A stretch of 59,742 nt of DNA from an uncultured Anaerolineaceae bacterium (lineage in GTDB: Bacteria; Chloroflexota; Limnocylindria; Limnocylindrales; CSP1-4): assembly GCA_964475245.1 (NCBI GenBank), contig CAYYVV010000013.1, positions 1 to 59,742 of the forward strand, read 5' to 3'. Position numbers and translations under genes: made by a program. Of this stretch, positions 2,964-50,568 are shown in pieces. A model generated the notes under the pieces. The model worked only from the letters and a program-made list of their open reading frames with translations. It made no database searches and was not told the DNA's origin. The stretch's first letter is position 1. Each line of letters starts with the position of its first letter.

Positions 2964-3080
2964 CGACGTCGATGGTAATCGCCGAATCGAAGTGAATCGC
3001 GTCTTCGCGTTTGCTAACTTGCCATCGGGGAGTTTGCTGCTGGCGGGTTCGCCGCTGGCGAGCCTAAGAGGAGGAGAGGG

Positions 3081-3584
3081 ATGACTGGGCTGCCGTTGCT
3101 GTTTCTGCTGCTCCACATCGGTGGAGCGGTGATCGCCTTTGGGCCGTCGTTCGCGTTCCCGATCATCGGCAGCATGGGCGGTGCCGAGCCGATGCATGCC
3201 AACTTCTCGCTGCGCCTGAGTGAGCGAATCGAGAGTCGGATCGTTCTGCCGCTCGCGATCGTCCAGGCGATCACAGGCATCGGCCTGATCTGGACAATGC
3301 CCGTCGACCTGACCAAGGCGCTCTGGCTAGATCTCGCGATCATCCTGTACGTCATTGCGCTGGGTATCGCCACGGGCAATCAGCTGCCCGTCACGAAGCG
3401 ACTGATCGAGGCGACCAAGAACCCGCCGCCTCCGCCGCCTGCGGGCACGCCCGTGCCTGCCGGGCCACCGCCGCAGATCGCGGCCATGATCAGGCGAGTT
3501 CAGCTGGGCGGCGTCGCTCTGACCGTGCTCATCCTCGTGATCATCGCCCTGATGGTGCTTGGCACGAACGGCTTCTTCGCCTAG
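3081..3584 (+). CDS. DUF2269-like integral membrane protein
   Basis: Four hydrophobic segments, an N-terminal HIxxAVIAFGP motif and a strong SD (GAGGAGG). Confidence 0.7.
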   Translation: MTGLPLLFLLLHIGGAVIAFGPSFAFPIIGSMGGAEPMHANFSLRLSERIESRIVLPLAIVQAITGIGLIWTMPVDLTKALWLDLAIILYVIALGIATGNQLPVTKRLIEATKNPPPPPPAGTPVPAGPPPQIAAMIRRVQLGGVALTVLILVIIALMVLGTNGFFA

Positions 3585-16680: not shown

Positions 16681-16768
16681 CGATGGGCTGTGGGTCCGGC
16701 GACACCCCCGTCCCGGTTGACTATGCTTGGCCTACTTTCTCGATCATATTCGTCGCCCAGGGGTCCCA

Positions 16769-17926
16769 ATGAAGATAGGTGTGGTCAAAGAGCGCGCGCC
16801 CAACGAACGACGCGTCGCCCTCGTGCCCGACGCGCTCAAATCGCTGATCGCCGCCGGTGCCGAGATCCTCGTCGAGCAGGGCGCGGGCGATAGCGCCGCG
16901 ATCCCCGATCGGCTGTACAGCGATGCCGGCGCGCGCATCGTGGCGCGCGACGAGCTGTACAAGGACGCGGACGTCATCGCCCGTGTCCAGAAGCCCGACG
17001 GCCCGGACGTCAAGTCGCTGCGCGAGGGACAGGTCGTCGTCGGCCTGCTCCAGCCGCTCATCGATCCGCAGCTGATGGCGACCCTGGCCAAGAACAAGGT
17101 CACCGCGATCAGCCTCGACGCCATTCCGCGCACGCTGTCGCGTGCCCAGTCGATGGACGTGCTCTCGTCGCAAGCGAACGTCGGCGGCTATCGGGCGGTG
17201 CTCATGGGCGCCCTCGAGTACGGCCGATACTTCCCGCTGCTGACGACCGCCGCCGGCACTGCCAAGCCGGCCAACGTGCTCATCCTGGGCATCGGCGTCG
17301 CCGGTCTGCAGTCAATCGCCACGGCGCGCCGGCTGGGTGCGATCGTCAAGGCGTATGACGTCCGCTCCGAGACCAAGGAGCAGGCCGAGTCGCTCGGCGC
17401 GCAGTTCATCGTCCTCAAGTCGGTCGCTGACGCGACCGGCGCCGGTGGCTATGCCCGGGCACTGACGCCCGAGGAGCAGGCCGCGCAGCAAGAGGAGCTG
17501 AACGGCTACATCGCCAACATGGACGTGGTCATCACCACGGCCCAGGTGCCCGGCCGTCGGCCGCCGCTGCTCGTCACGGCCAAGGCCGTCGCGGGCATGA
17601 AGCCAGGCTCGGTCATCGTCGACATGGCAGCCTCCGCGCTCGGCGGCAACGTCGAGCTCTCCAGGCCCGACGAGACGGTCGTGACCGACAACGAGGTGAC
17701 GATCGTCGCGCCGACGAACCTGCCGGCGACCATGCCGGCCGGTGCCAGCCAGTTCTACGCTCGCAACATGTCGACCTTCCTCGTCCACTTCATGAAGGAC
17801 GGGGCCATGAATTTCGACCTGACCGACGAGATCCAATCGGCGACGGTCATCACCCGCGACGGCGAAGTCGTGCAGGAGGCAACCAAGAAGCTCCTCCAGC
17901 CGGCCGCCCCGGAGGCAACAAAGTGA
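16769..17926 (+). CDS. pntA: NAD(P) transhydrogenase subunit alpha part 1 (dI)
   Basis: MKIGVVKE....ERRVALVP, RAQSMDVLSSQ, GIGVAGL and DVVITTAQVPGR. Confidence 0.95.
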   Translation: MKIGVVKERAPNERRVALVPDALKSLIAAGAEILVEQGAGDSAAIPDRLYSDAGARIVARDELYKDADVIARVQKPDGPDVKSLREGQVVVGLLQPLIDPQLMATLAKNKVTAISLDAIPRTLSRAQSMDVLSSQANVGGYRAVLMGALEYGRYFPLLTTAAGTAKPANVLILGIGVAGLQSIATARRLGAIVKAYDVRSETKEQAESLGAQFIVLKSVADATGAGGYARALTPEEQAAQQEELNGYIANMDVVITTAQVPGRRPPLLVTAKAVAGMKPGSVIVDMAASALGGNVELSRPDETVVTDNEVTIVAPTNLPATMPAGASQFYARNMSTFLVHFMKDGAMNFDLTDEIQSATVITRDGEVVQEATKKLLQPAAPEATK

Positions 17927-18300
17927 ACCCAGACCTGCTCAATGCGCTGGCGATCTTCCTGCTCGCGATCCTCGTCGGGTTCGAGGTCATCAGCAAGGTC
18001 CCGGCGACTCTGCACACGCCGCTGATGTCGGGCGCGAACTCGATCCATGGCATCGTCATGGTCGGCGCGATGCTCATCGCCGCGGCCGCTGACAACCCGT
18101 TCAGCTACGTGCTCGCGTTCATCGCCATGGTCTTTGGCGCGGCCAATGTCGTGGGCGGTTACGTCGTCACCGACCGAATGCTCCAGATGTTCCGACGGCG
18201 CGAGCCGGCGAAGGCAGCACCTGCTGTCGAGGCGGCAAGCGTTCCGGCCGGCACTCCCGGCACGGGCACCGGTGCGGCCGGCGCCGCGGAGGGCAAGTAG
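17923..18300 (+). CDS. pntA: NAD(P) transhydrogenase subunit alpha part 2 (membrane)
   Basis: ISKVPATLHTPLMSGANSIHG and NVVGGYVVTDRMLQMF. GTG start overlaps the upstream stop. Confidence 0.93.
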   Translation: MNPDLLNALAIFLLAILVGFEVISKVPATLHTPLMSGANSIHGIVMVGAMLIAAAADNPFSYVLAFIAMVFGAANVVGGYVVTDRMLQMFRRREPAKAAPAVEAASVPAGTPGTGTGAAGAAEGK

Positions 18301-18302
18301 TC

Positions 18303-19772
18303 ATGTCGGACGCCTGGATCTACACACTCGTCTTCTTCAGCTGGCTGGCCGGCGCGGCCGCGTTCGTGCTCGGCCTGCACCAGATGAACAGCCCGGCCAC
18401 GGCGCGCCGCGGCAACCAGCTCAGCGCGGCCGGCATGGCCCTGGCCGTGATCGTCACCTTCCTGTGGCTGCTGACGCCCGGTAACGCGATCCATGCCGGG
18501 GGCATGAGCCTGACCGCCATCGCGATCATCGTCGTCGGCTTCGTGCTGGGCGGCGGTATCGGGCTGTACATGGCGCGCAAGGTCGCCATGACCGCCATGC
18601 CGCAGCTCGTCTCGCTGTTCAACGCAGTCGGCGGAGGGGCGGCCGCCCTGGTCGCAATCGACGACTTCGTGCGCATCGCGGGCCAGCCTGAGCTGACCGT
18701 TTCCACCTCGATCTTCGTGGTCCTGGGCGCCGCAATCGGCAGCGTGACCTTCTCGGGTTCGCTGATCGCTTCGGGCAAGCTCCAGGGCCTCATCCCGGGC
18801 CAGCCGATCATCTTCCCGGGCTCACGCCTGGTCACCGCGCTCACCGCGCTGATCGTCGCCGTCGGGCTCGTGGTGCTCGTTCTTGCCTCGGCGGGCGCGG
18901 TCGTCCTCACCTCGGACGTTCAGCTTCTGGTCCTGGGCCTCGTCGTCCTGTCGGCGCTGACATTCGGCATCACGCTCGTGCTGCCCATCGGCGGCGCGGA
19001 CATGCCCGTCGTCATCTCGCTCTTGAACTCGTTCACCGGCACGGCCGCGGCCATGGCCGGCTTCGTCATCGGCAACCCTGTGCTGATCATCGCCGGCGCG
19101 CTCGTCGGCGCCTCGGGCGCGATCCTGACCAAGCTCATGGCCGACGCCATGAACCGCTCGATCGCGAACATCATGGTCGGTGGCTTCGGGACCGGTGATG
19201 CAGCGGCAGGCTCCGCAACCGGCGCGGGCGCGTCAGGCGGCACCATCCGCGAGGTCAGCCTCGACGATGCCGCAATCCAGCTCGCCTACGCCCAGAAGGT
19301 GATCATCGTCCCCGGCTACGGCCTGGCCGTGGCCCAGGCGCAGCACGCCTGCCGCGAGCTCGGTGACCTGCTCGAGGCGCGTGGGGTCGAGGTCTCGTAC
19401 GCCATCCATCCGGTGGCCGGCCGGATGCCGGGCCACATGAACGTGCTGCTGGCCGAGGCCAACGTGCCCTACCCGCAGCTCAAGGAGATGGAGGAGATCA
19501 ACCCCGAGTTCGATCGGACCGACGTTGCCCTCGTGGTGGGTGCGAACGACGTCACCAACCCGGCGGCGCGATCGAACCCGCAGAGCCCGATCTACGGCAT
19601 GCCCATCCTCGATGTCGACCATGCGCGGTCGATCATCGTCATGAAGCGCTCGATGCGGCCCGGTTATGCGGGCATCGACAACGAGCTGTACGCCAACCCC
19701 AAGACGGGCATGCTCTTCGCCGACGCGAAGGACGGCCTGACCCAGCTGGTCGCCGCGGTCAAGGAGCTCTAG
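18303..19772 (+). CDS. pntB: NAD(P) transhydrogenase subunit beta
   Basis: MTAMPQLVSLFNAVGGGAA, IGGADMPVVISLLNS, VPGYGLAVAQAQ, HPVAGRMPGHMNVLLAEA and GANDVTNP. Confidence 0.96.
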   Translation: MSDAWIYTLVFFSWLAGAAAFVLGLHQMNSPATARRGNQLSAAGMALAVIVTFLWLLTPGNAIHAGGMSLTAIAIIVVGFVLGGGIGLYMARKVAMTAMPQLVSLFNAVGGGAAALVAIDDFVRIAGQPELTVSTSIFVVLGAAIGSVTFSGSLIASGKLQGLIPGQPIIFPGSRLVTALTALIVAVGLVVLVLASAGAVVLTSDVQLLVLGLVVLSALTFGITLVLPIGGADMPVVISLLNSFTGTAAAMAGFVIGNPVLIIAGALVGASGAILTKLMADAMNRSIANIMVGGFGTGDAAAGSATGAGASGGTIREVSLDDAAIQLAYAQKVIIVPGYGLAVAQAQHACRELGDLLEARGVEVSYAIHPVAGRMPGHMNVLLAEANVPYPQLKEMEEINPEFDRTDVALVVGANDVTNPAARSNPQSPIYGMPILDVDHARSIIVMKRSMRPGYAGIDNELYANPKTGMLFADAKDGLTQLVAAVKEL

Positions 19773-37641: not shown

Positions 37642-38793
37642 CTAGCCCGGATTCAGCAGCAGCGGCCGCAGCCGGCCCCACATGTCCCACAGTTGCGACA
37701 GGCGCGCGCCGCGCGGGCCGAGGAAGGCCATCACGTGCTCCAGGTCGAGATTGGGCGCCCGACTGGCCAGGTACTCCTCGACTGCGACCGTCGTGCCCAG
37801 CCACAGTGAGTTGATCGCTTCCTGGGCCGCCGGCCGGCGCAGCGCGCGCGGATCGAGGCCGACGTGCGACACGGCAATCGCGAGCTCGCGCATCGTCGGC
37901 ACGCGCTCGTCTGCCCAGCCCTCTCGGCCGTCGAAGCGGTAGCCCATCGAGGCAAGGCTGGCGACGACGCGCCGCGCGCCTTCGCCGGGGAACTGGCTCC
38001 AGAACGGATGCTCGGCTGGGAGGCGGAGAGCGTTGTCCTCCAGGGCGCGCGCCGCGAGCTGCTCGCGCAGCTCCAGCAACAGGAGCTGGAGGCGGCCGGC
38101 CTCGACGCCCGTCTCCTCGGCCAGCCGCAGGCCGAGCGACAGCAACGTGTCGCGGTCGCCGCGCAGGACGAGCGTGATCGGGCGCACGCGATGCGGCGCG
38201 GGCTGAGCGGCAGTGGCTGGATCTGGCGCATCCTGGTCGTCGGGCGTCGCAGGCTGAGCGGGCCCATCCGGTCTGTGGATTCGGCTCTGCGCCTCTTCCT
38301 CGCACGTCGCGAGCGCGCGGCGTGCCTCAATGCAGGCCACCTGCGCGGATTCGGCCGAGATCCGGGCGGCGTCGGCGGCAAGCTCGATGCCCGGCATTGC
38401 CCGTTCGAGCTCCGTGGCGCGGCGGACGACGTCCTCGGCGCGCCGATCGGCGAGCGCGACCTGGCGGTTCAGGCGATCGATGTCGCGCAGCCAGCTGTGC
38501 GCCGCTTCCTGGACCTGGGCCGCACTTGCGGCCGCCATCATCGCTGCGCGATATGCGAGGCGGGCAGCATTCTTGGTCGCGTCCAGCTGGCGCCGGTCGC
38601 GCACCATCGCGTCGGCTTCCCTGAGCGTGCTCACCTGGTGTAGCTGCCTTCTCGCCTCGCGCAGGCGCAGCTGGTGCGCGACCGCCGCCTGCCCCAGCCG
38701 CTCAGCCTCGGCACAGCGTGAATCGACCGCGGCCCGAGCCGGAGCGCACGGCCCACCGAGCGGCTCCGCGGATGCGGATGAGGACGTCGCCAT
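37642..38793 (-). CDS. Hypothetical protein with long N-terminal coiled coil
   Basis: Ala/Arg/Glu-rich heptad region followed by a globular C-terminus. TACGCT lies 7 nt before the ATG. Confidence 0.65.
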   Translation of the reverse strand: MATSSSASAEPLGGPCAPARAAVDSRCAEAERLGQAAVAHQLRLREARRQLHQVSTLREADAMVRDRRQLDATKNAARLAYRAAMMAAASAAQVQEAAHSWLRDIDRLNRQVALADRRAEDVVRRATELERAMPGIELAADAARISAESAQVACIEARRALATCEEEAQSRIHRPDGPAQPATPDDQDAPDPATAAQPAPHRVRPITLVLRGDRDTLLSLGLRLAEETGVEAGRLQLLLLELREQLAARALEDNALRLPAEHPFWSQFPGEGARRVVASLASMGYRFDGREGWADERVPTMRELAIAVSHVGLDPRALRRPAAQEAINSLWLGTTVAVEEYLASRAPNLDLEHVMAFLGPRGARLSQLWDMWGRLRPLLLNPG

Positions 38794-38926
38794 ATGAGCG
38801 AGCGTAGGTTTTCAGGCCCATCCGCGTCTATGGGACCGTTGGCGCCGCATGCCAGCGAACGCGGGCGATGCTACGATCGGCGGCGGTGGCAACCGAGCAC
38901 AGACTGCCCCACGAGGTTTGATCCTT

Positions 38927-40783
38927 TTGGCCATCGATCCCAACCAGGAATTCCTGGTTCAGCCTGTCGACGCTTCCTGGCTTCAGTGCAATATCGAGTG
39001 CCAGGAAGCGTGCCCCGTGGGCACGAACTGTCGCGGGTACCTGAACCTCGCCGCTGAGGGCCGCTTCGAGGAGGGCTACATCCTCGCGCGCGAGCCGAAT
39101 CCGGTCGCGGCGATGTGCGCCTACGTCTGCTCCGCCCCATGCGAGCGCGCGTGCCGGCGCGGCGACATCGATCGGCCGCTGTCGATCAGGGCCATGAAGC
39201 GCTTCCTGACCGAGTGGCACCAGGCGAGCGGCATCCCTGACGACATGCCCCAGATAACGCCGCGCGACACGAAGGTGGCCGTTGTCGGCGCTGGCCCGGC
39301 CGGCATCTCCGTCGCCCGCGAGCTGGCCACGGCCGGCCACCAGGTCACGGTCTTCGACGAGCTGCCCTACGGCGGCGGCACGATGCTCATCGGCGTGCCC
39401 GCCTTTCGCCTGCCGCGCGAGGCGATCGAGATGGACCTCAAGCTCGTGGAGCGGCTCGGCGTCCGCTTCCGGTACGGCGTGCGCATCGGGCGTGAGATCA
39501 CATTCGAGGAGCTCCAGCAGCAGTACGACGCGATCGGCATCTGCGCCGGAGCGATGAACGCCGTCCCGCTTGACGTTCCCGGCGGCGATCTCGAAGGCAT
39601 CCAGTACGGCGTCGACTACATGAAGAAGGCCAACCTGGGCGAGCCGATGGACGTCGGCGACAACGTCGTCATCATCGGCGGCGGCTACACCGCGATGGAC
39701 TGCGCGCGAACTTCGCTGCGCTACGGCTCGAGCAACGTCACGATTGCGTACCGCCGCACGCGCTCGGAGCTCGTGGTCGACGAGGAGGAGCTCGGCGAGA
39801 CCGAGCGCGAGGGCGTCCGGATGGAGTTCCTGGTCAGCCCGGTCGAGGTGCTGGGCGACGAGAAGGGCCACGTCCGCGCCGTCAAGTTCGTCCGCAACCG
39901 CCTCGGCGAGCCGGACGCGACCGGCCGCCGCGCGCCCGTGCCCATAGAGGGCAGCGAGTTCGAGATCCGCGCCGACACGGTCATCCCCGCCGTCAGCCAG
40001 GCCGCGGACAACACCTTCTTGCCCGTCGAGTCGAGCTTCGAGATCAACCGCGGCCGCGTCCGCGTCGATCCCGGCACGTACGCGACCAACGTCCGTGGCG
40101 TGTTCGCCTGCGGCGACTTCGTGACCGGGCCGACGACGCTGATCGAGGCCGCCGGCCACGGCAAGAAGTGCGCCTATGCCATCGACCGCTACCTGTCCGG
40201 CCGGCGCGAGGTCGACGTCGACGCCAATGTGCGCATCATCAGCTCGTGGCGCCACGAGATGCCCGAGTACTACGACGTCCTGCCGCGCGTCCACGTCCCG
40301 ATGGCGCCTGTCGCGGCGCGCTTCACGGCAGCCGCCGACCCGACCGTCAACTTCAGCACGCCCGTTGAGCTCGGCTACAGCGCCTCGCAGGCGGTGACCG
40401 AGGGCACGCGCTGCCTGATGTGCAACTACAACATCTGGTTCGACGGCTTCCGCTGCGTGCTGTGCGGCGCGTGCGCCGATGTCTGCCCTGAAGGCGTCAT
40501 CCACATGATCGACATCAACCAGATGAAGTCGGAGGGCCCGCTGCCCGAGCTCGTCGACGCCTACGGCTGGTCCGACGGAGCGGCGATGGTGCTCGACGAG
40601 GAGCGCTGCATCCGTTGCGCATTGTGTGTCAAGCGATGCCCGTATGACGCCATTACCATGGAGCGGTTCGAGCTCCAGGAGATCAGCTCCGACGGGCGCC
40701 TCTACAAGGAGAGCTACCGGGATACCCAGCTGGGGCTCGCTGGCATCGGTAACCGCGCCGAGGCGGGAGGATACGTTCGTTGA
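38927..40783 (+). CDS. GltD/NfnB/DsrL-like FAD-dependent NAD(P)H oxidoreductase with N-terminal Fer4_20 and C-terminal 2[4Fe-4S] ferredoxin domain
   Basis: CNIECQEACP...CAYVCSAPCERACRR, GAGPAG, FRLP, GGGYTA.D + AYRR, RCLMC, CVLCGACADVCP and CIRCALCVKRCP. Start is TTG 38927 or 38918. Confidence 0.9.
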   Translation: MAIDPNQEFLVQPVDASWLQCNIECQEACPVGTNCRGYLNLAAEGRFEEGYILAREPNPVAAMCAYVCSAPCERACRRGDIDRPLSIRAMKRFLTEWHQASGIPDDMPQITPRDTKVAVVGAGPAGISVARELATAGHQVTVFDELPYGGGTMLIGVPAFRLPREAIEMDLKLVERLGVRFRYGVRIGREITFEELQQQYDAIGICAGAMNAVPLDVPGGDLEGIQYGVDYMKKANLGEPMDVGDNVVIIGGGYTAMDCARTSLRYGSSNVTIAYRRTRSELVVDEEELGETEREGVRMEFLVSPVEVLGDEKGHVRAVKFVRNRLGEPDATGRRAPVPIEGSEFEIRADTVIPAVSQAADNTFLPVESSFEINRGRVRVDPGTYATNVRGVFACGDFVTGPTTLIEAAGHGKKCAYAIDRYLSGRREVDVDANVRIISSWRHEMPEYYDVLPRVHVPMAPVAARFTAAADPTVNFSTPVELGYSASQAVTEGTRCLMCNYNIWFDGFRCVLCGACADVCPEGVIHMIDINQMKSEGPLPELVDAYGWSDGAAMVLDEERCIRCALCVKRCPYDAITMERFELQEISSDGRLYKESYRDTQLGLAGIGNRAEAGGYVR

Positions 40784-41508
40784 GCTTTCTCGAGCGTGTA
40801 GACGTGGCTGTCAGGCGCAGCGCGGCCTTCCGTTCGCTGTTCCGCCAGCCCTACCCCACCGACGAGCGATCGCGTGCCTACGCGGTCATGAACAACGTCT
40901 TCCTGCACCTCCACCCGGTGCGCGTCCGGCAGCACGCGGTCAGGTTCGCGTACACGTTCTGCCTCGGCGGACTGTCGTTCTTCTTCTTCCTAGTGCTCGT
41001 CGTGACCGGCGTGTTCCTGATGTTCTTCTATATCCCGTCGTCGACGTCGGCGTATACGGACATCCTGAACATCCAGGCCCAGGTGCCATTCGGGCTGCTG
41101 ACCCGCAACATCCACCGCTGGGCCGCGCACTTAATGGTCTTCTTCGTCTTCCTGCACATGATGAGGGTCTTCTACCACGGCGCCTACAAGCCGCCGCGCG
41201 AGTTCAACTGGGTCATCGGCGTACTGCTGCTGTTCTTCACCGTGGCGCTCTCGTTCACCGGCTACCTGCTGCCCTGGGATCAGATCGCGTTCTGGGCCGT
41301 GACCATCGGCAACAGCATCGCGGGCTACGTGCCGCTTCTGTCGCGGCCGTCGCAGTTGCTCATCTTCGGCGGCATCGAGGTCAGCCAGAACACGCTCCTA
41401 CGCTTCTACGTGCTGCACGTGATCCTGTTGCCGCTGACCGCGGCTATCTTCCTCGCCGTGCACTTCTGGCGCATCCGGAAGGACGGCGGCATCTCAGGGC
41501 CGCTCTAG
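40780..41508 (+). CDS. Cytochrome b6-type N-terminal subunit (PetB/QcrB-like)
   Basis: YTFCLGG (heme-ci Cys), HRWAAHLMVFFVFLH, GYLLPWDQ.A.WA and LHVILLP...VH. Four TM segments. TTG overlaps the upstream TGA. Confidence 0.93.
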   Translation: MSFLERVDVAVRRSAAFRSLFRQPYPTDERSRAYAVMNNVFLHLHPVRVRQHAVRFAYTFCLGGLSFFFFLVLVVTGVFLMFFYIPSSTSAYTDILNIQAQVPFGLLTRNIHRWAAHLMVFFVFLHMMRVFYHGAYKPPREFNWVIGVLLLFFTVALSFTGYLLPWDQIAFWAVTIGNSIAGYVPLLSRPSQLLIFGGIEVSQNTLLRFYVLHVILLPLTAAIFLAVHFWRIRKDGGISGPL

Positions 41509-41541: not shown

Positions 41542-42186
41542 ATGACCGAAGACAAGTCGCGACTACCCGCTCCGACTGCACCCGCCGAGCCGAGCGCCCC
41601 ACGGCGCAGCACGCTACCCGCCGCGCCGCCCGAGCGACGCACGACGGAGATCGACAAGCAGCGCGTGCCCATGGCCGCGAAACCGTACCGGCTCCTGGCG
41701 CTGGTCAAGCAGGACGCTGTCGTTCGCGTTCAAAAGGAACCCGACGACACGGTCATGACCTGGCCGCACCTGCTGGCGATCGAGTTCTTCGCGGCGGCGA
41801 TGATGAGCGTCCTCCTGCTGCTGATGGGCGTCTTCGTCAACGCGCCGCTCGAGGATCTGGCCAACCCGAACACGACTCCGGTCGTGGCCAAGGCGCCGTG
41901 GTACCTGGTCGGCATCCAGGAGCTGCTCGCCTATTTCCACCCGGTCGTCGCCGGTGTGATGTCGATCGCCTACATCATCGTCGGCGCGCTGGTCATCCCG
42001 TACATCGACCGCGGCCCGCGCGGCGACGGCGGCTCGTCGCGACCCAGCGACCGCAAGCTCGGCATCATGCTGTTCACGATGTTCGCCGCCAGCGGCCTCG
42101 TCATCACGTTCCTGGGCGCCTTCTTCCGCGGCCCGGGCTACAACTACATCGTGCCGTGGACCGACGGCCTGTTCTTCGCTCTCTAG
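41542..42186 (+). CDS. Cytochrome b6 subunit IV-like protein (PetD/QcrC-N/ExtQ-like)
   Basis: WPHLL, LANPNTTP..AKAPWY (PEWY position), IPYID and three TM segments. Confidence 0.88.
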   Translation: MTEDKSRLPAPTAPAEPSAPRRSTLPAAPPERRTTEIDKQRVPMAAKPYRLLALVKQDAVVRVQKEPDDTVMTWPHLLAIEFFAAAMMSVLLLLMGVFVNAPLEDLANPNTTPVVAKAPWYLVGIQELLAYFHPVVAGVMSIAYIIVGALVIPYIDRGPRGDGGSSRPSDRKLGIMLFTMFAASGLVITFLGAFFRGPGYNYIVPWTDGLFFAL

Positions 42187-42207: not shown

Positions 42208-42876
42208 ATGGGTAACTGGAAGCTGGCCCGTTGGCAGGAACCGCAGACGCTGACGCGCGACGTGTTGCGCGAGATGCGCCGCGGCCGGCCGGCGGGCATG
42301 TCACGGCGCACGCTCATCCGGCGCTCGATCGGCGCCGGCGTGGCGCTGTGGCTGCTCGAGGTAACCGGCGGGCTGCTCGGCTTCCTGTGGCCCAACCTGT
42401 CGAAGGGCTTCGGTGGGCAGCTGACGCTCGGCGATCAGCCGACCGTCTCGGCCAGCCCGGCCGTGCAGGGCGTGTCCCTGTCGGACGGGGCGCCGGCATA
42501 TTTCGCACCGGCTCGAACCTATGTCCAGTTGCTCGACTACACGCGCGGCTTCAACGACGGCACCAGCAGCGACGGCACGGGCGACACGACCAACGTGCGC
42601 ACGCTCTACCAGCGTTGCCCGCACCTGGGCTGCAAGCCCAACTTCTGCACGACCAACTACTGGTTCGAGTGCCCGTGCCACGGCTCGCGCTATGACCGGG
42701 TCGGGACCAAGATCAAGGAGCTCGGTCCCGCGCCGCGCAGCCTCGACCGCTTCGCGCACACGATCAAGGGCGGCGTGCTGACCGTCGACACCTCCAAGAT
42801 CAACCTCGGCCCGCTGCCCGTCGCGCTTGGCCAGCCCGGGCTCATCCCGGCACGCTCTCCGCAGGGCTGCATATGA
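42208..42876 (+). CDS. Rieske [2Fe-2S] subunit (Tat-exported)
   Basis: SRRTLI twin-arginine signal with TM helix, CPHLGC and CPCHGSRY. Confidence 0.93.
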   Translation: MGNWKLARWQEPQTLTRDVLREMRRGRPAGMSRRTLIRRSIGAGVALWLLEVTGGLLGFLWPNLSKGFGGQLTLGDQPTVSASPAVQGVSLSDGAPAYFAPARTYVQLLDYTRGFNDGTSSDGTGDTTNVRTLYQRCPHLGCKPNFCTTNYWFECPCHGSRYDRVGTKIKELGPAPRSLDRFAHTIKGGVLTVDTSKINLGPLPVALGQPGLIPARSPQGCI

Positions 42877-44216
42877 GCGACAACCGGAGCGGCCGCGACC
42901 TCGTGCCGCGGCCCGAGGAGCCCGGCTCTGCCGTCACGCCGCGCGAAGCCGGCCTGCCCGCGAACGCCCCGGCCGATGAGCGCTTCTCCGCCGGCCAACA
43001 GGCGCACACCGTCGGGCTGAGCGAGGAGCGCGTCGCCAAGATCGTCAAGCAGAGCGGCAACGCGCGCATGTACGCGTTCCTTGCTGCGCTGTTCCTGGTC
43101 CTGTTCATCCCCATCTACTGGCTGTACGACATCGGCTTGCCCGTGATCGGCGACAGCGGCCGCCTCGCGAACGAGGCCAACCAGCAGCAGGTGACGGACA
43201 TCTCGCAGGGCTATGCCCTCTTCCTCGCCAACTGCGCGCGCTGCCATGGCAACAACGGCGAGGGTGGCGTCGGCCCGCCGCTCAATGACCAGGCCAAGCT
43301 GTACAACGCGCTCACGCCTCAGGGCGATCCCGGCAACGGCCACCTCAACCCGAACTACATCCAGAATGTGCTGACCGTCGGCGGCCGCTACGTGTGCGGC
43401 GACCCCAACAGCGTCATGCCCATCTGGGCGCAGCCCAACGGTCCGTTGAACTACCTCCAGATCCAGCAGATCATCGACTGGATCACGGCCAGCAGCAGCA
43501 CGTCCTTCGTCTACCAGCCGGCCGTGCCGGAAGGGCAGGCCGGAGCGACCGCGCCGCCGGCAGTGACCATCCACGGCTGGACCGATCCCAACTACAGCCC
43601 TGCGCCGGACGCGACCGCCGTGCCGGCATGCTGGCGCGGCACCTCGGTCACTGGCAGTGGCGGCTCGGCCGCGCCGTCGCTCGCGCCGGTGACCAGTCCG
43701 GGCACGGCCCAGAACCCGCGCATCGTCCAGGTCGAGGGCACGCCCAGCGCGCAGTGGGTCGACGCGACAACCGGCCAGCCGATCAGCCAGCTCGCGGTCG
43801 TGCCCGGTGAGACGATCGAGTTCCAGGTCAAGACCGACACTCTGGCCCACAACTTCCACATCGGCTCGGCGGCCGACCTGTCAGCTGCGCCCGAGCACAA
43901 CGACCTGCCCGGACTCGACACCTTCTCCGGCAACACGCAGAACTTCATCTACACCGTGCCGGGCGACCCGTCCGGTCTCCAGTTCGCGTGCACGGTGCCC
44001 GGCCACTACCAATCGATGCACGTCGACCTCGTGGCCCTGGGCGGCGGATCTGCGTCTCCGGGGGCATCGGGCGCGGCACCGTCCGCCGCGCCGCAGTCGG
44101 GCGCGCCGCAGTCTGCGGAACCGTCGGGATCGACCGCGCCGGCCGTGTCGGCAGCTCCTTCTCCGGCGCCGTCGGCAGCTCCATCGGCGGCTCCCAGCAC
44201 GGCACCCGCCTCGTAG
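42873..44216 (+). CDS. Membrane-anchored monoheme cytochrome c fused to a type-1 copper cupredoxin domain
   Basis: N-terminal TM segment, CARCH (43233-47), distal MP, then HNF (His 43848) and CTVPGHYQSM (43989-44018), ending in an Ala/Pro/Ser tail. Confidence 0.88.
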   Translation: MSDNRSGRDLVPRPEEPGSAVTPREAGLPANAPADERFSAGQQAHTVGLSEERVAKIVKQSGNARMYAFLAALFLVLFIPIYWLYDIGLPVIGDSGRLANEANQQQVTDISQGYALFLANCARCHGNNGEGGVGPPLNDQAKLYNALTPQGDPGNGHLNPNYIQNVLTVGGRYVCGDPNSVMPIWAQPNGPLNYLQIQQIIDWITASSSTSFVYQPAVPEGQAGATAPPAVTIHGWTDPNYSPAPDATAVPACWRGTSVTGSGGSAAPSLAPVTSPGTAQNPRIVQVEGTPSAQWVDATTGQPISQLAVVPGETIEFQVKTDTLAHNFHIGSAADLSAAPEHNDLPGLDTFSGNTQNFIYTVPGDPSGLQFACTVPGHYQSMHVDLVALGGGSASPGASGAAPSAAPQSGAPQSAEPSGSTAPAVSAAPSPAPSAAPSAAPSTAPAS

Positions 44217-45707
44217 ATGGCTGCCCAAGCCCTCCCGCCCGGAGCAGTTCGCCGCCGCGCGGTGTTCGGACTTCTCGACGCCGACGGCTGGACGTGGGCC
44301 TCGATCAAGGCCACCTTCTGGTTCGTGTTCATCATCTTCGTCCTGGGCTACATCCCGGACCGAGCCATCTATTTCACGATCTCGCCGACGATCGACCTGG
44401 GCTTCAACGTGATCTCGCCCATCAACCTCTGTCCGACCGATAACAAGTCGCTGCCCTGCCCGGCTCCCGCCGGCGCAGTAATCCCGTGGGAGCAGAGCCC
44501 GGCGGAGCTGGCACTGCCGCAGGGCCGCACCGCTTCTGGCACTTTCTCGTCGGGCAGCAACATCTACCTGGTCGGCGGCGCGAGTGGCGGAACGGCCACG
44601 AACAGCGTCCTGGTCACCACCGTCGCCAGCGGCAACTTCAGCCCGTGGCAGGACGGGCCGGCACTGCCCGACGCGCGCAGCGGCGCGGTCGTGCTCAACC
44701 TTGCCGGCACGCCGTACGTCATCGGTGGCTCTGACGCGTCCGGAAATCCGACCGCGACCGTCTACAGGGGCACCATCACCAGCGGCGCCCTGACCGGCTG
44801 GACAGACGCCGGCATCAACCTGCCCATGCCGCTGACCGACGCGTCCGGTGTTTCGACCGCGAACGGCCTGTACGTGTTCGGTGGCGAGATGAGCGGCAAC
44901 GCACTATCCGCGGCCACGTACCTGACGACGCTGACCACGACCGGCACGCCCAAGCTCCAGGCCTGGCAGGAGATGACCGAGGTGCCACTGCCTGAGGCAC
45001 GCGCCGGTGCGTCGGCCGTTTCGGCCGGCGGCTCGGTCTACGTGATGGGCGGCCGCGGGCCGAGCGGCGTCACGAACTCTGTCTTCTACCTGCCGCTCGA
45101 CACGCACGGCAACCCGGCCGTCAACCTCGCCATCGGCCGGCCGTTCGGCTGGGGCGTGTCGGTCAACCAGTCGGCCTCGGCGGCACTGCCGGTCGCGGTC
45201 CAGCACGCCACGACGTTCACCAACTCGGGTGCCATCTACATGATCGGCGGCACGGACGCAAACAACGCCACGCTCGCATCGAACTACTGGGCAGTGCCCA
45301 ACGCGACGAACGGCACGATCTCCGCCTGGCAGCACCTCGACGACACGGACCTGCCTGGGCCGCGCGCCGAATCGGCGGCCGCGGTTGTCGGTGGCGAGGC
45401 GTTCCTGATCGGCGGCAGTGGCGCGCAGGGCGAGGACCTCGCCTCGACCAGCCGCGCCAATCTCGCGCCCGGCCTGCCGTTCTTCCGACTGGGCCTGTTC
45501 GGCGTGACCGTCCCGGCGCTGTCGATCAAGGGTGACATCGGCCTGCAGCTGGGTTACATCGCGGCCGGCACTGCCGGCGCCGGCGGCCTCATCTTCCTGA
45601 TCCTCATCGGCTGGGCCTTCTCGCACCGCCCGCAGACGTTCCGCTTCTTCCAGCGGATCACCCGCGGCCGTTTCCGGGCACCTCCAGAGGACGATTACAC
45701 CTACTAG
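44217..45707 (+). CDS. Six-blade kelch beta-propeller protein with N- and C-terminal TM anchors
   Basis: Six hydrophobic-GG repeats (IYLVGG, PYVIGG, LYVFGG, VYVMGG, IYMIGG, AFLIGG) with spaced Trp. Starts immediately after the upstream stop. Confidence 0.82.
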   Translation: MAAQALPPGAVRRRAVFGLLDADGWTWASIKATFWFVFIIFVLGYIPDRAIYFTISPTIDLGFNVISPINLCPTDNKSLPCPAPAGAVIPWEQSPAELALPQGRTASGTFSSGSNIYLVGGASGGTATNSVLVTTVASGNFSPWQDGPALPDARSGAVVLNLAGTPYVIGGSDASGNPTATVYRGTITSGALTGWTDAGINLPMPLTDASGVSTANGLYVFGGEMSGNALSAATYLTTLTTTGTPKLQAWQEMTEVPLPEARAGASAVSAGGSVYVMGGRGPSGVTNSVFYLPLDTHGNPAVNLAIGRPFGWGVSVNQSASAALPVAVQHATTFTNSGAIYMIGGTDANNATLASNYWAVPNATNGTISAWQHLDDTDLPGPRAESAAAVVGGEAFLIGGSGAQGEDLASTSRANLAPGLPFFRLGLFGVTVPALSIKGDIGLQLGYIAAGTAGAGGLIFLILIGWAFSHRPQTFRFFQRITRGRFRAPPEDDYTY

Positions 45708-46181: not shown

Positions 46182-46580
46182 TCAGGTGAGCTCCGAGAGC
46201 GGCTGACGGCGGTCGAAGCCCGTGTTGATCTCGTGCCACCACGCGATGTCGTCCTCGCCGAGGCGCCAGCACAGCCAGATCGGCCGGCCGTTGGCGAGCG
46301 CCGGGAAGTCGATCAGGCCGGTCGAGATGTCGCGCAGCGTGATGCCCAGGACGTCGATCTGGCCAACGGCCTGCTGCATCCGGCGCACGATCTCGCGTTC
46401 CTCGTCCTCCAGCTCGGCGAGCTGCTCGGCGTGCTCCGCGGAGCCGTTCGTCTGCCGTCCGCGGACGAGCTCGCGCTGGAGCTGGGCGACGCGGTCGCGG
46501 TCGGCGCGCAGGCGCTCCAGCAACGGTCGGACCTGGGCAATCTGGTAGTTCGCCTCGTCGATCCCGAAATAGCGCGCCAC
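46182..46580 (-). CDS. DUF2203-family protein
   Basis: RYFGIDEAN, LRDISTGLIDFP, LCWRLGE and WWHEINTGFDRRQPL. Confidence 0.85.
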   Translation of the reverse strand: MARYFGIDEANYQIAQVRPLLERLRADRDRVAQLQRELVRGRQTNGSAEHAEQLAELEDEEREIVRRMQQAVGQIDVLGITLRDISTGLIDFPALANGRPIWLCWRLGEDDIAWWHEINTGFDRRQPLSELT

Positions 46581-46680
46581 TGCCGAATTCTCGCACTCGG
46601 TGCGCGGGATCCGTTCAGCACTCGACGCCGTCGTAGCGAGTGATAGCGTGGTCTCGACTCTAGGAAAGGAACGCATCGGC

Positions 46681-47745: not shown

Positions 47746-47818
47746 CGGCGGTCGCGCCAACCAAAGGCGAGCCGCCGACATCTATTAAGCGGAACCGGGT
47801 ATCGCATCGAGGGAGTTG

Positions 47819-48331
47819 ATGGATCGCGAGCTCCTGGTTCAGGCACGTGCCGGAGATCGGGAGGCATTCGAATCGATCGTGTTGGCCAAGGGTGAGCCGC
47901 TTTTTCGGACCGCGATGGCGATCCTGGGCAACGAGGCCGACGCGCGCGACGCAACCCAGGAAGCATTGGTGGCCGCCTGGAGAGGGCTGCCGTTCCTGCG
48001 CGATTTCGATCGTTTCGACGCGTGGTTGGGCCGGATATTGATCAACGAGAGTCGCATGACGCTGCGCCGTCGTCGGCGCGCCAATGAGATTCCGCTGCCC
48101 GACGCCGATTTGGAAGTCGGGGGCCCCGACTCACCGCCTCCAGCTTCTTCCGACTTTGACGCCGCGTTCAACCGAATATCGGTCGACCAGCGGGCGATGC
48201 TCGTGCTCCACCACCTGCACGGCTACGGCGTCGACGAGATAGGCGCGTGGCTTGGCATCCCGTCCGGGACAGTCAAGTGGCGGCTCTCGCGCGCGCGTCG
48301 GGCGCTCGCGGCGCAACTGGACGAAGGCTGA
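47819..48331 (+). CDS. ECF-family RNA polymerase sigma factor
   Basis: Region 2 (DARDATQEALV.AW, FDAWLGRILIN) and region 4 (R.MLVLHHLHG...DEIG.WLGIPSGTVKWRLSRARR). SD GAGGGAG. Confidence 0.92.
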   Translation: MDRELLVQARAGDREAFESIVLAKGEPLFRTAMAILGNEADARDATQEALVAAWRGLPFLRDFDRFDAWLGRILINESRMTLRRRRRANEIPLPDADLEVGGPDSPPPASSDFDAAFNRISVDQRAMLVLHHLHGYGVDEIGAWLGIPSGTVKWRLSRARRALAAQLDEG

Positions 48332-50568
48332 TGAACGACGACGAGCTGCGCGACGCGCTTGAGCGCCGGTCGGCCGGCGCGCAGTTCCGGGCCGAAGAGT
48401 TGCTGCCCGAGGTTCGTCGCGCTGTCGGTGTCCGTCCTCAGCCGGCTCGCGTCGCCCGCTGGGCGCCGCTCGCCGGCCTCGCCGCCGCCGCCGTCATCGT
48501 GGTTGCCCTCGTGATCGCCTTCCCCGGCGGCGCGCCTTCGCCGGGGTCGAAGTCTCTCGACGTCATGACCACGGACGCCTTCGCCTCTGCGCTCCAACGC
48601 GGCTCGCTCGCCAACGAGACCATTCTCGTGAACGGTGGGATCGTGCCATTTGACGCATCGATAGCTGGCGGTCCATGCATCCCGCCTAGCCCGTGTGCCC
48701 TAGGGCAGCTTGAGAATGTGCAGCCGTCCATCGCGGTCATCGCCGATCAGGTCGCGGTCGCGCCGTCTGGCAGCTCGTCAGCGACTCAGGACGTCGGCTG
48801 GCCTTCGTGGGCGAATCTGAGCCTGCCGATCCGCGGAACCTTGGTGTTGTCGGTCGACCGCGCGGGCGGCGTGAAGTACCTCGGTCGTGTCGTGCCGAAT
48901 GGCGATCAACTCACTTGGTCGGTCGGTCAGGTCAAAACCGAACTCGATGTGACTGCTCAGGACCTCGGCGACGTCGTCCTGGTAAATGGCTGGCTAACAG
49001 GCGTCGATTTCCCAGCGCCCTGCCAAACCTTCCCTCCGCAGTTCCCTGGCCTGCCCGATCGAAGTGAGTGCGGAGTTGACTCGTGGATCGCCGATGAACC
49101 CGCGGTGTTGACCGCGCAGTCTGAACAGCCACTGTCGGCGATCGAGGTCCAGCCGGATGCGTTCGCCGACTATGCCCCGGATCCGACTGCTCGAAGTGGC
49201 GACAGCCTTCGTCCGCAGCGTGCCGTCTACGCAGTGGCTCGCCGTCTATACGGACAGTTCTGCGTAACTGAGTCACCTTGTTGGGACTGGTCGGTAGTCG
49301 GTCGCCTGTCGCAGGCTGGGCCGAATGTCGCGCCGCCCTCCGTGGACGCCGAACAGACACCGGCGGTCGAGGCGACGGCTAGCGCCGTTCCGCTTCAGAG
49401 CGGGAATGAACTGTCCTGCGGCAACGACATGACGGTGCTGGATATGACCGGTCTGGTCGCGTCGTGCAGCTCCAACGTCGCCCTGGTCCCGAGTCAACCG
49501 GCGGGTTTGATCGCAACGCCGACGGTGATCACCGCAATGTGGACCGGCGCGATGTGCCAACCCATCACGCAGGCGGCGTTCAACGAAACCGGTTCTGGAT
49601 ACGAGCTCGCGATTTCACCGTCAAGTCCACCGTATCCGAGCGGCGCACCGTTGTGCGCCGGTGGTCCGCTCGCGATGACCCTGACCCTGACTCTTCGCAC
49701 TCCGGTCTCCGCGGCGATTACCGCAACGTTCGGCGGGCAGGACTTGCCGTACCTGGCGTCACCATCACCTTCGCCGTCCACGGCAGCGGGCGCCTTAGAG
49801 CAGACATGCGGCCCGACGATGGTCTTGGCAGACTCGACGGGCCAGGTCGTGAACTGCATCGATGGTGGCGGCGGTGACTATCATTCCGCACAATTCGGCG
49901 TGGCACTCGACACAGATCCGCATTTGGTGCACCTCACGTGGCTCGCGAATTGTGAAAGGTCGGAGCACATTTCCGTGGCCAACTCGGCGGCTTCGGGCGG
50001 AGTCCCGCGTTACCAGATCACGATTGTGCCCAGATCCTTCGACGCGTCCTGCTTTTTCAGCCCAGCCGCGCGGCACGCAGTTATCGCCTTCGCCAAGCCG
50101 GTCGACCCGACCGCCGTTTCTTTGGACGTCGAATCCGCCGTGGTCGATTGCAATCGAGTAGGCGACTTCGGAAAGCACATCGATGAAGTCTCGATCCGAG
50201 ACGGGACGGGCTTGATTACAGCATGTACACAGAGCCCCCCTTCTGAAACAGATACTCACTCTGACTCGGCCCAAGACGTACAACCAAACCAAATTCGTGT
50301 GGACTGGACGGATGACGAAGGGCCATACCTCACCTTGACGTTCGATCAAACAGACCAGAGCTATGAGCTCGCAAGCCCTGATTTCTGCAGCTCTTGTCCA
50401 AACATCCGCTTCGAGATAGTCATCACTTTCGCGAGCCACGTGGACGCTTCATCGCTCTGGATCGGGCTCGAGGGTCGCACGCTTGTCCCTGGACTTACTC
50501 CCGTCGCGACTGACTCGCCGATGCCAGACTTCACGTTCGGGACATTGCCGCCGCTCCAAGGCCCCTAG
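48331..50568 (+). CDS. Putative anti-sigma factor: short cytoplasmic N-terminus, one TM segment, large Cys-rich extracellular region with three repeats
   Basis: ATG overlaps the sigma TGA. MNDDELRDALERR N-terminus, TM segment (LAGLAAAAVIVVALVIAF) and repeats DMTGLVASC / DSTGQVVNC / DGTGLITAC. Confidence 0.75.
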   Translation: MNDDELRDALERRSAGAQFRAEELLPEVRRAVGVRPQPARVARWAPLAGLAAAAVIVVALVIAFPGGAPSPGSKSLDVMTTDAFASALQRGSLANETILVNGGIVPFDASIAGGPCIPPSPCALGQLENVQPSIAVIADQVAVAPSGSSSATQDVGWPSWANLSLPIRGTLVLSVDRAGGVKYLGRVVPNGDQLTWSVGQVKTELDVTAQDLGDVVLVNGWLTGVDFPAPCQTFPPQFPGLPDRSECGVDSWIADEPAVLTAQSEQPLSAIEVQPDAFADYAPDPTARSGDSLRPQRAVYAVARRLYGQFCVTESPCWDWSVVGRLSQAGPNVAPPSVDAEQTPAVEATASAVPLQSGNELSCGNDMTVLDMTGLVASCSSNVALVPSQPAGLIATPTVITAMWTGAMCQPITQAAFNETGSGYELAISPSSPPYPSGAPLCAGGPLAMTLTLTLRTPVSAAITATFGGQDLPYLASPSPSPSTAAGALEQTCGPTMVLADSTGQVVNCIDGGGGDYHSAQFGVALDTDPHLVHLTWLANCERSEHISVANSAASGGVPRYQITIVPRSFDASCFFSPAARHAVIAFAKPVDPTAVSLDVESAVVDCNRVGDFGKHIDEVSIRDGTGLITACTQSPPSETDTHSDSAQDVQPNQIRVDWTDDEGPYLTLTFDQTDQSYELASPDFCSSCPNIRFEIVITFASHVDASSLWIGLEGRTLVPGLTPVATDSPMPDFTFGTLPPLQGP

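Follow-up and report, generated by a model that had tools for sequence, protein, structure and literature searches.

A predicted cytochrome c–cupredoxin fusion encoded in a Rieske/cytochrome b operon of Limnocylindrales

Rieske/cytochrome b complexes vary most in their c-type subunit. Here we describe a candidate for this role encoded on a 59,742-nucleotide stretch of DNA (contig CAYYVV010000013.1 of assembly GCA_964475245.1; hereafter the window) from an uncultured Anaerolineaceae soil bacterium that GTDB assigns to the Limnocylindrales (Chloroflexota, Limnocylindria). The gene, at positions 42873–44216 of the plus strand, is predicted to join a membrane-anchored monoheme cytochrome c and a blue-copper cupredoxin in one chain, and is the fifth of six tightly packed plus-strand genes that include those for a Rieske protein and a split cytochrome b. 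We propose, with a probability of roughly 0.6, that its product is the high-potential redox subunit on the membrane's positive side (P side), on a path leading from quinol through the Rieske cluster, heme c and copper to a terminal acceptor. Parts of this picture are already known: automated annotation sees both domains, fused redox carriers have been described, and so have blue-copper partners of Rieske/cytochrome b complexes. For a cytochrome c–cupredoxin chain as a subunit of such a complex, full-text literature searches returned no description.

Described systems that pair heme and copper carriers

Auracyanin is a stand-alone, membrane-tethered carrier of respiratory and photosynthetic chains and a partner of alternative complex III. 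Auracyanin A of Chloroflexus aurantiacus (2AAN) comes from the same phylum-level group as the window protein, and its copper loop, CTVPGHYPLM, is almost the same as the CTVPGHYQSM found here, both having the spacing C-x4-H-x3-M. Outside the loop, however, similarity is low, and in the window protein the copper domain comes behind a cytochrome c on the same chain, the gene lying in a Rieske/cytochrome b operon. Azurin shares both this spacing and a His-Asn motif with the window cupredoxin. The azurins of Pseudomonas and Alcaligenes (e.g., 4AZU) are its best structural matches, although identity is only 14–20%, and azurin is soluble, periplasmic and placed outside membrane complexes.

Other systems carry two redox centres on one chain. 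The anchor of actinobacterial QcrC is C-terminal, whereas that of the window protein is N-terminal. QcrC, a diheme cytochrome cc, belongs to the bcc-aa3 supercomplex, in which one anchored chain operates with no soluble shuttle (PMC4505504). The window protein likewise places equivalents of cytochrome c1 and of the mobile carrier on a single anchored chain, with weak similarity to QcrC around CxxCH. Unlike QcrC, its second centre would be copper instead of heme, and its host has a split cytochrome b6/subunit IV with an APWY motif rather than an actinobacterial QcrB. In caa3 oxidases, subunit II is a single anchored chain that unites a CuA cupredoxin with a class I cytochrome c and acts as a built-in electron wire. 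The cytochrome domain of the Rhodothermus subunit II (1W2L) is a weak profile match to the family described here; caa3 subunit II nevertheless has a binuclear CuA site and belongs to an oxidase, whereas the window protein has a predicted mononuclear type-1 site and is encoded with a quinol-oxidising complex.

Blue-copper proteins also occur as separate partners. The gene for haloarchaeal halocyanin clusters with those of a split-b Rieske/cytochrome b complex, and the protein has been proposed as acceptor of that complex and as oxidase donor (PMC3509893). Both halocyanin and sulfocyanin differ from the window protein in being archaeal, separate copper proteins with no c-type heme. Sulfocyanin SoxE, in the SoxM supercomplex of Sulfolobus, is the second such example of a blue-copper partner.

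With respect to the host complex, the closest described relatives are those of anammox bacteria (Kuste4569-4574 and Kustd1480-1485), which share a b6-like cytochrome b, a subunit IV-like protein, a high-potential Rieske protein and, on the cytoplasmic side, an NAD(P) oxidoreductase that has about four iron–sulfur (FeS) clusters; in contrast, their P-side cytochromes c are hexa- or octaheme, whereas the window complex would carry one heme and one copper plus an extra Kelch protein (PMC12954380). The first-pass annotation of this DNA, a reading of the letters and their open reading frames (ORFs), had likened the chain to cytochrome f plus plastocyanin of the b6f complex, and the succession Rieske, heme c, blue copper makes this a functional analogy. 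The chain is, however, related to cytochrome f in neither sequence nor fold; the cupredoxin is of azurin/auracyanin type and fused instead of diffusible, and the direction of flow is one that we infer.

Architecture of the fused chain

The gene is a single ORF of 447 amino acids plus stop, in frame throughout, and its GC content at third codon positions (GC3) of 0.89 matches that of neighbouring real genes of the genome. The coordinates, strand and length given by the first-pass annotation agree with the ORF list, and each motif it had named was found again: the transmembrane anchor, the single CxxCH, the Met of VMP, the Cys residues of YVC and PAC, the His of HNF, the copper loop and the Ser/Ala/Pro tail. 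Below, a residue is called invariant if it shows no change across a 48-sequence alignment (A1), on which AlphaFold2 was also run, with confidence expressed as the predicted local distance difference test (pLDDT). The parts of the chain are as follows.

42873..44216, plus strand: whole gene, predicted membrane-anchored monoheme cytochrome c plus type-1 copper cupredoxin (ORF list, GC3, more than 832 homologues, ATGA overlap)
42873..43067, plus strand: conserved cytoplasmic N-terminal region, residues 1–65 (invariant residues in A1, positive-inside rule)
43068..43130, plus strand: single transmembrane anchor, N-in/C-out, residues 66–86 (Kyte-Doolittle hydropathy, AlphaFold2 helix)
43155..43490, plus strand: class I cytochrome c domain, residues ~95–206 (PF13442, PF00034, A1-invariant ligands)
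43491..43634, plus strand: conserved post-cytochrome extension, residues 207–254 (A1-invariant G235, W236, P245, P251, C253 and W254)
43635..43697, plus strand: gap-rich, variable Gly/Ser/Ala/Pro linker, residues 255–275 (low conservation, gaps, pLDDT <50)
43698..44042, plus strand: auracyanin/azurin-type cupredoxin, residues 276–390 (AlphaFold2, Foldseek, profile match to auracyanin A)
44043..44213, plus strand: low-complexity Ala/Ser/Pro tail, residues 391–447 (composition, pLDDT <50)

The hydrophobic span at about residues 66–86 has Lys, Lys and Arg on its N side and Asp on its C side, indicating an N-in/C-out topology; in 19-residue Kyte-Doolittle windows its hydropathy peaks at 2.25, and AlphaFold2 predicts a helix over residues 51–87. 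Because of this topology, both redox domains are placed outside the membrane, and attachment of c-type heme requires such an extracytoplasmic location. The 65 residues that precede the anchor are strongly conserved, with R13, P23, R24, E25, R37, H45, G48, L49 and R53 invariant, and possibly contact subunits on the opposite, N side. Such strong conservation is unusual for a simple anchor.

The heme-binding motif CARCH (residues 121–125, nucleotides 43233–43247) is the sole CxxCH in any credible gene of the window, and Met182 of SVMPIW (nucleotides 43416–43418) is the predicted axial ligand; C121, C124, H125 and M182 are all invariant. Residues 109–170 match the Pfam cytochrome c families PF13442 (31.5 bits against a cut-off of 27) and PF00034 (30.4 bits against 21.3). 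With a CxxCH motif, a distal Met and predicted extracytoplasmic placement, the domain has the features of a class I c-type cytochrome, and sequence and profile searches find weak similarity to cytochrome cL, CcoP and actinobacterial QcrC. In a Pfam/NCBIfam scan of the window protein, neither cytochrome c1 (PF02167) nor cytochrome f (PF01333) was matched at E≤0.1, and, as far as its sequence indicates, the protein is an analogue of c1/f by gene position alone and not by homology. Membership of the QcrC family is likewise not indicated: with NCBIfam model NF050122 the protein reaches 25 bits where the cut-off is 200, and it has one CxxCH rather than two heme domains.

The segment that the first-pass annotation called a linker includes the invariant motifs GW..P...P.CW and PGT...PR, and the extension motif is retained even in a distant relative at locus L042 (GWRDPAYKPTPGSTPFPACW). 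Cys175 (YVCGD, nucleotides 43395–43397) and Cys253 (PACW) are both invariant, and a C175–C253 disulfide is plausible, in a region where pLDDT is below 50. Such low confidence extends over residues 248–269, and residues 255–275 are the probable tether. At the other end of the chain, 45 of the 57 tail residues are Ala, Ser or Pro; the tail is poorly kept among relatives in both length and sequence, some of them having just 386–390 amino acids.

The copper ligands are predicted to be His326 (AHNF, nucleotides 43848–43850) and the residues of the loop C373-TVPG-H378-YQS-M382 (nucleotides 43989–44018). All four of these ligands (H326, C373, H378 and M382) are invariant, and conservation of N327 reaches 90% or more. 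AlphaFold2 models residues 276–390 as an eight-strand beta-sandwich with pLDDT 89–98, for which the top 50 Foldseek matches in the Protein Data Bank (PDB) are azurins only (E~2e-6, probability 1.0, target-normalised TM-score 0.55–0.65). Searched against PDB sequences, the family profile matches auracyanin A (2AAN; E=2.3e-5) as the sole solved cupredoxin, and the alignment superposes the family His and Cys-His-Met loop on the auracyanin ligands; a single-sequence search of the PDB with the window protein gives cytochrome c matches only. Among relatives, PF00127 is recognised in P0024, P0048 and P0123 at 25.2, 35.0 and 35.2 bits, respectively, against a cut-off of 21.2. On the model and the conserved residues, the C-terminal domain is an azurin/auracyanin-type cupredoxin with a complete set of type-1 ligands, so that the auracyanin-like copper domain of the first-pass annotation stands, including its expectation of a cupredoxin fold. 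Its statement that auracyanin uses C-x4-H-x4-M is wrong for auracyanin A, and the H-to-M loop that it considered one residue shorter has the same x3 spacing there. In azurin, C112, H117 and M121 are spaced in the same way. A shortened loop that tunes the copper potential was accordingly rejected, since auracyanin A and azurin have equal spacing.

Operon, homologues and variants of the slot

The remaining five genes of the operon are listed here.

38849..40783, plus strand: GltD-like NAD(P)/FAD flavoprotein, first gene (PF07992, PF14691, PF00037/PF12838; NCBIfam PRK12771, gltA)
40780..41508, plus strand: four-helix cytochrome b6 (PF00033, 3.2e-47; NCBIfam ExtP and cytochrome b6)
41542..42186, plus strand: subunit IV-like protein with APWY Qo motif (PF00032)
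42208..42876, plus strand: Rieske 2Fe-2S subunit (PF00355; PetC-type and Rieske_proteo NCBIfam similarity)
44217..45707, plus strand: Kelch beta-propeller with hydrophobic segments at both ends (Pfam Kelch families, PDB Kelch matches)

Translational coupling is indicated by the junctions TTGA (GltD-like stop and b6 start), ATGA (Rieske stop and cytochrome c–Cu start) and TAG-ATG (cytochrome c–Cu and Kelch). In the GltD-like protein, an FeS domain (Fer4_20) at the N-terminus and a 2x[4Fe-4S] ferredoxin domain at the C-terminus give about four FeS clusters. The Rieske protein carries a Tat RR signal and the motifs CPHLGC and CPCHGSRY, and the four His ligands of cytochrome b6 presumably align with those of PetB. 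The Kelch protein is without redox motifs; it may serve as a scaffold on the P side of the complex or as its assembly factor.

To follow the locus across species, we scanned one genome per species and found 46 loci with a clear relative, all of them in metagenome-assembled genomes (MAGs) of Chloroflexota / Candidatus Limnocylindrales. The six-gene order is kept in all 46 as far as each contig extends. The GltD-like gene adjoins b6 in 40 loci, the remaining six contigs ending short of it; the Kelch gene follows directly in 44, the other two contigs ending inside the cytochrome c–Cu gene. The first-pass annotation had placed the chain in the slot of the c-type subunit, and its gene does lie directly after the Rieske gene in 46 of 46 loci, the position taken by a cytochrome in the comparable b6-type cluster L055. 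The chain is thus encoded and co-inherited with the Rieske, cytochrome b and subunit IV genes, as a subunit of their complex would be. The b6 and GltD-like proteins are 80–99% identical across the loci, and the cytochrome c–Cu protein 47–88%, leaving aside a few of the most divergent or frameshifted loci (L042–L046); L045 and several long-read loci have too many frameshifts to interpret. The Qo motif reads KAPWYLVGIQE in 41/46 loci, the Rieske box CPCHGSRY, with the Ser-Tyr signature of high-potential clusters, is present in 38/46, and YTFCLGG, with Cys where b6f binds heme ci, in 40/46.

The host complex is not a plain bc1 or b6f complex, given its GltD-like NAD(P)/FAD/FeS subunit, its APWY Qo motif and the Ser-Tyr signature of its Rieske protein, and either direction of electron flow is therefore possible. 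With split b6 and subunit IV, APWY, a mid-to-high-potential Rieske signature and a GltD-like subunit, it falls within the APWY-clade and NAD(P)-oxidoreductase class as defined in PMC4122944 and PMC12954380. The anammox type of that class is set apart by a hexa- or octaheme P-side cytochrome c, in place of which this operon encodes one heme and one copper site. The APWY clade includes Chloroflexi, Planctomycetes and others, among which no member has been characterised, and Kao & Hunte proposed that it operates in reverse (PMC4122944). For the anammox Rieske/cytochrome b complexes with an NAD(P) oxidoreductase, electron bifurcation to NAD(P)+ has been proposed (PMC12954380; see also PMC5600118).

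A homology search with the window protein returned more than 832 relatives, all from MAGs or metagenome contigs and none from a cultured organism. Many are labelled by JGI as 'mono/diheme cytochrome c family protein/uncharacterized cupredoxin-like copper-binding protein', with PF00127 present in some. The best 120 homologues, drawn from ENA, JGI, NCBI and Logan, all have exactly one CxxCH and 119 have the copper loop, the exception (P0046) being a frameshifted assembly. The spacing is C-x4-H-x3-M in 109 and C-x4-H-x4-M (HYxxGM) in 10. The first-pass annotation had named a stop or frameshift between the domains in close relatives as evidence that would speak against it; obvious assembly frameshifts apart, no such split was seen. 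A fusion produced by assembly or gene calling, joining two separate genes, would be in keeping with the few relatives that are frameshifted (P0046, P0132, P0241 and P0254). The frame is nevertheless continuous in the window, the domains are unbroken in 119 of the 120 best homologues from several sources, and a single tblastn match spans both in about 40 of the 46 species loci, which leaves an artefact with a negligible likelihood, and we rejected it.

Variants show what else the slot after the Rieske gene can hold. P0133, found on three independent contigs from three sources (L068–L070), is copper-only: it retains the N-terminus, anchor and cupredoxin, and the cupredoxin begins about 35 residues past the anchor, taking the proximal place. 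P0136 (L067) is heme-less, with the CxxCH region deleted, the axial Met lost and the remainder kept. Both lie directly downstream of a Rieske gene belonging to this family. P0123 combines a cytochrome c with two cupredoxins. In L042 (labelled Thermomicrobiales; 932–2023), the protein retains its cytochrome domain along with the GWRDP...PACW extension, and the copper domain is of another type (PF13473; CTVHPTM, C-x2-H-x2-M). Judging from these sequences, a copper domain is part of every slot variant found within the cytochrome c–Cu family, and heme, though usual, can be dispensed with. When the cupredoxin domain by itself was used as query, only 154 clusters at 50% identity were returned, mostly stand-alone cupredoxins of 130–250 amino acids with CTVPGHYxxM, many of which have a lipoprotein-type N-terminal signal; P0123, P0133 and P0136 came from this search as well.

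Beyond the family, an Actinomycetes MAG (L055; 4662–5933) encodes a triheme tandem cytochrome c after b6, subunit IV and Rieske; this cytochrome is anchored at its N-terminus and has another hydrophobic segment close to the C-terminus. In an Eisenbacteria MAG (L061; 2656–11833), GltD, Rieske and b6/subunit IV genes are followed by a multiheme cytochrome and a 1194-amino-acid molybdopterin oxidoreductase. By its encoded domains, the slot is modular in relatives, with a triheme cytochrome, two cupredoxins or a swapped cupredoxin type.

Elsewhere in the window, positions 16727–19772 (plus strand) contain the operon for PntAB, a proton-translocating NAD(P) transhydrogenase (alpha subunit, a part with four transmembrane helices and beta subunit), which could bear on NAD(P)H balance if the Rieske/cytochrome b complex makes or uses NAD(P)H. 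A 383-amino-acid protein with no Pfam match (37642–38793, minus strand) lies divergently upstream of the operon and is syntenic in most related loci, and a DUF2203 gene (46182–46598, minus strand) lies downstream in many loci. The window further contains a gene for a molybdenum hydroxylase large subunit (507–3197, minus strand; xanthine/CO dehydrogenase family, MoCoBD_1/2 and hammerhead domain), as well as an extracytoplasmic function (ECF) sigma factor followed, with overlap, by a 773-amino-acid protein (47816–50568, plus strand), which has no Pfam match and may be secreted or act as an anti-sigma factor.

Electron path and significance

In the proposal that the chain is the P-side high-potential subunit, the N-terminal helix would anchor it, and the membrane-proximal heme c domain would fill the role of cytochrome c1 or f, to neither of which it is related. 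The copper domain, on its linker of about 20 residues, would be a built-in, tethered carrier toward the terminal acceptor, probably a heme-copper oxidase, and would correspond in role to the second heme domain of QcrC or to the cytochrome c fused to caa3 subunit II. The domain order is in line with this, the cytochrome standing directly after the anchor and the cupredoxin beyond a variable, low-confidence linker, as are the ATGA overlap with the Rieske gene, the constant gene position in all 46 loci and the modular make-up of the slot in relatives. Halocyanin of haloarchaea is a precedent for blue copper as partner of Rieske/cytochrome b (PMC3509893). Moreover, the Rieske protein has the Ser-Tyr signature of a high-potential cluster (PMC4122944, PMC12954380) and therefore suits a copper or heme c acceptor.

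Several observations weigh against this proposal. The APWY motif and the GltD-like NAD(P) module belong to a class for which reverse operation has been proposed (PMC4122944), and a Pfam scan of the other credible ORFs of the window (41 in all) found no terminal oxidase or other partner. Since P0133 and P0136 occupy the same slot, transfer from Rieske to copper without heme must be possible, and because of such copper-only and heme-less variants the order of heme before copper is not secured. On the structural side, Pfam cupredoxin models do not match the window protein at E≤0.1, AlphaFold2 predicts the cytochrome part (modelled without heme) and the linkers poorly, and the conserved linker motifs speak for true flexibility in no more than about 20 residues.

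The same evidence invites a view in which electrons run the other way: copper and heme would be an entry port through which a high-potential donor feeds the Rieske cluster and the Qo site in a reversed Q-cycle, with the N-side GltD-like module providing low-potential electrons from NAD(P)H for the reduction of menaquinone. Rusticyanin of Acidithiobacillus is a precedent for a cupredoxin as entry carrier for uphill electron flow, the GltD-like gene is translationally coupled to that of cytochrome b6, and APWY, the motif of the clade that Kao & Hunte proposed to run in reverse, is present in 41 of the 46 loci (PMC4122944). That idea is itself only a proposal, however; the conserved cluster encodes no donor enzyme, and NAD(P)H-to-quinone flow through such a complex has been deemed wasteful (PMC12954380), so that we consider reverse operation unlikely. 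An order of Rieske, copper and then heme c, or two parallel centres, would have the cupredoxin dock on the Rieske head, with heme as exit or side branch. Although copper in P0133 and P0136, encoded directly after Rieske, must contact either Rieske or another partner, the cytochrome in the fused form adjoins the anchor and the cupredoxin is distal, past the flexible linker, making a copper-first route decidedly improbable.

Lastly, the cupredoxin might handle copper, either in CopI-like resistance or in copper delivery to an oxidase, rather than carry electrons. The NCBIfam CopI model does match residues 352–383 (E=9e-5), but at 22 bits against a cut-off of 280 and over the shared Cys-His-Met loop only. 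Against such a function, the full set of type-1 ligands and Asn327 are conserved, the nearest solved relatives (auracyanin A and azurin) are electron carriers, and in 46 species the gene keeps its fixed place in a Rieske/cytochrome b operon; we rejected this explanation as having very little chance of being right.

A wider proposal concerns the six-gene cluster as a whole, which might form, in an aerobic soil lineage, a menaquinol:NAD(P)+ / blue-copper oxidoreductase that bifurcates electrons. One quinol electron would then pass downhill through Rieske, heme c and the tethered copper to an oxidase, while the second would be pulled uphill through very low-potential b hemes, heme ci, four FeS clusters and FAD to NAD(P)+. 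This idea is tentative, and we think it may well be wrong. If true, the cytochrome c–Cu fusion would act as driving arm in an oxygen-powered form of the scheme that has been proposed, and never demonstrated, for the anammox complexes, and with only two P-side centres it would offer a much simpler system in which to test bifurcation.

The interest of the locus lies more in the APWY/NAD(P) complex and in the natural domain variants than in loop spacing. Limnocylindria (Ellin6529) are common in soil and freshwater surveys, and the fusion is fixed across them. The natural variants show a modular rebuilding of the complex III outlet. Within the APWY/NAD(P)-oxidoreductase class, the fusion marks a compact member, which may be the easiest in which to test bifurcation to NAD(P)H.

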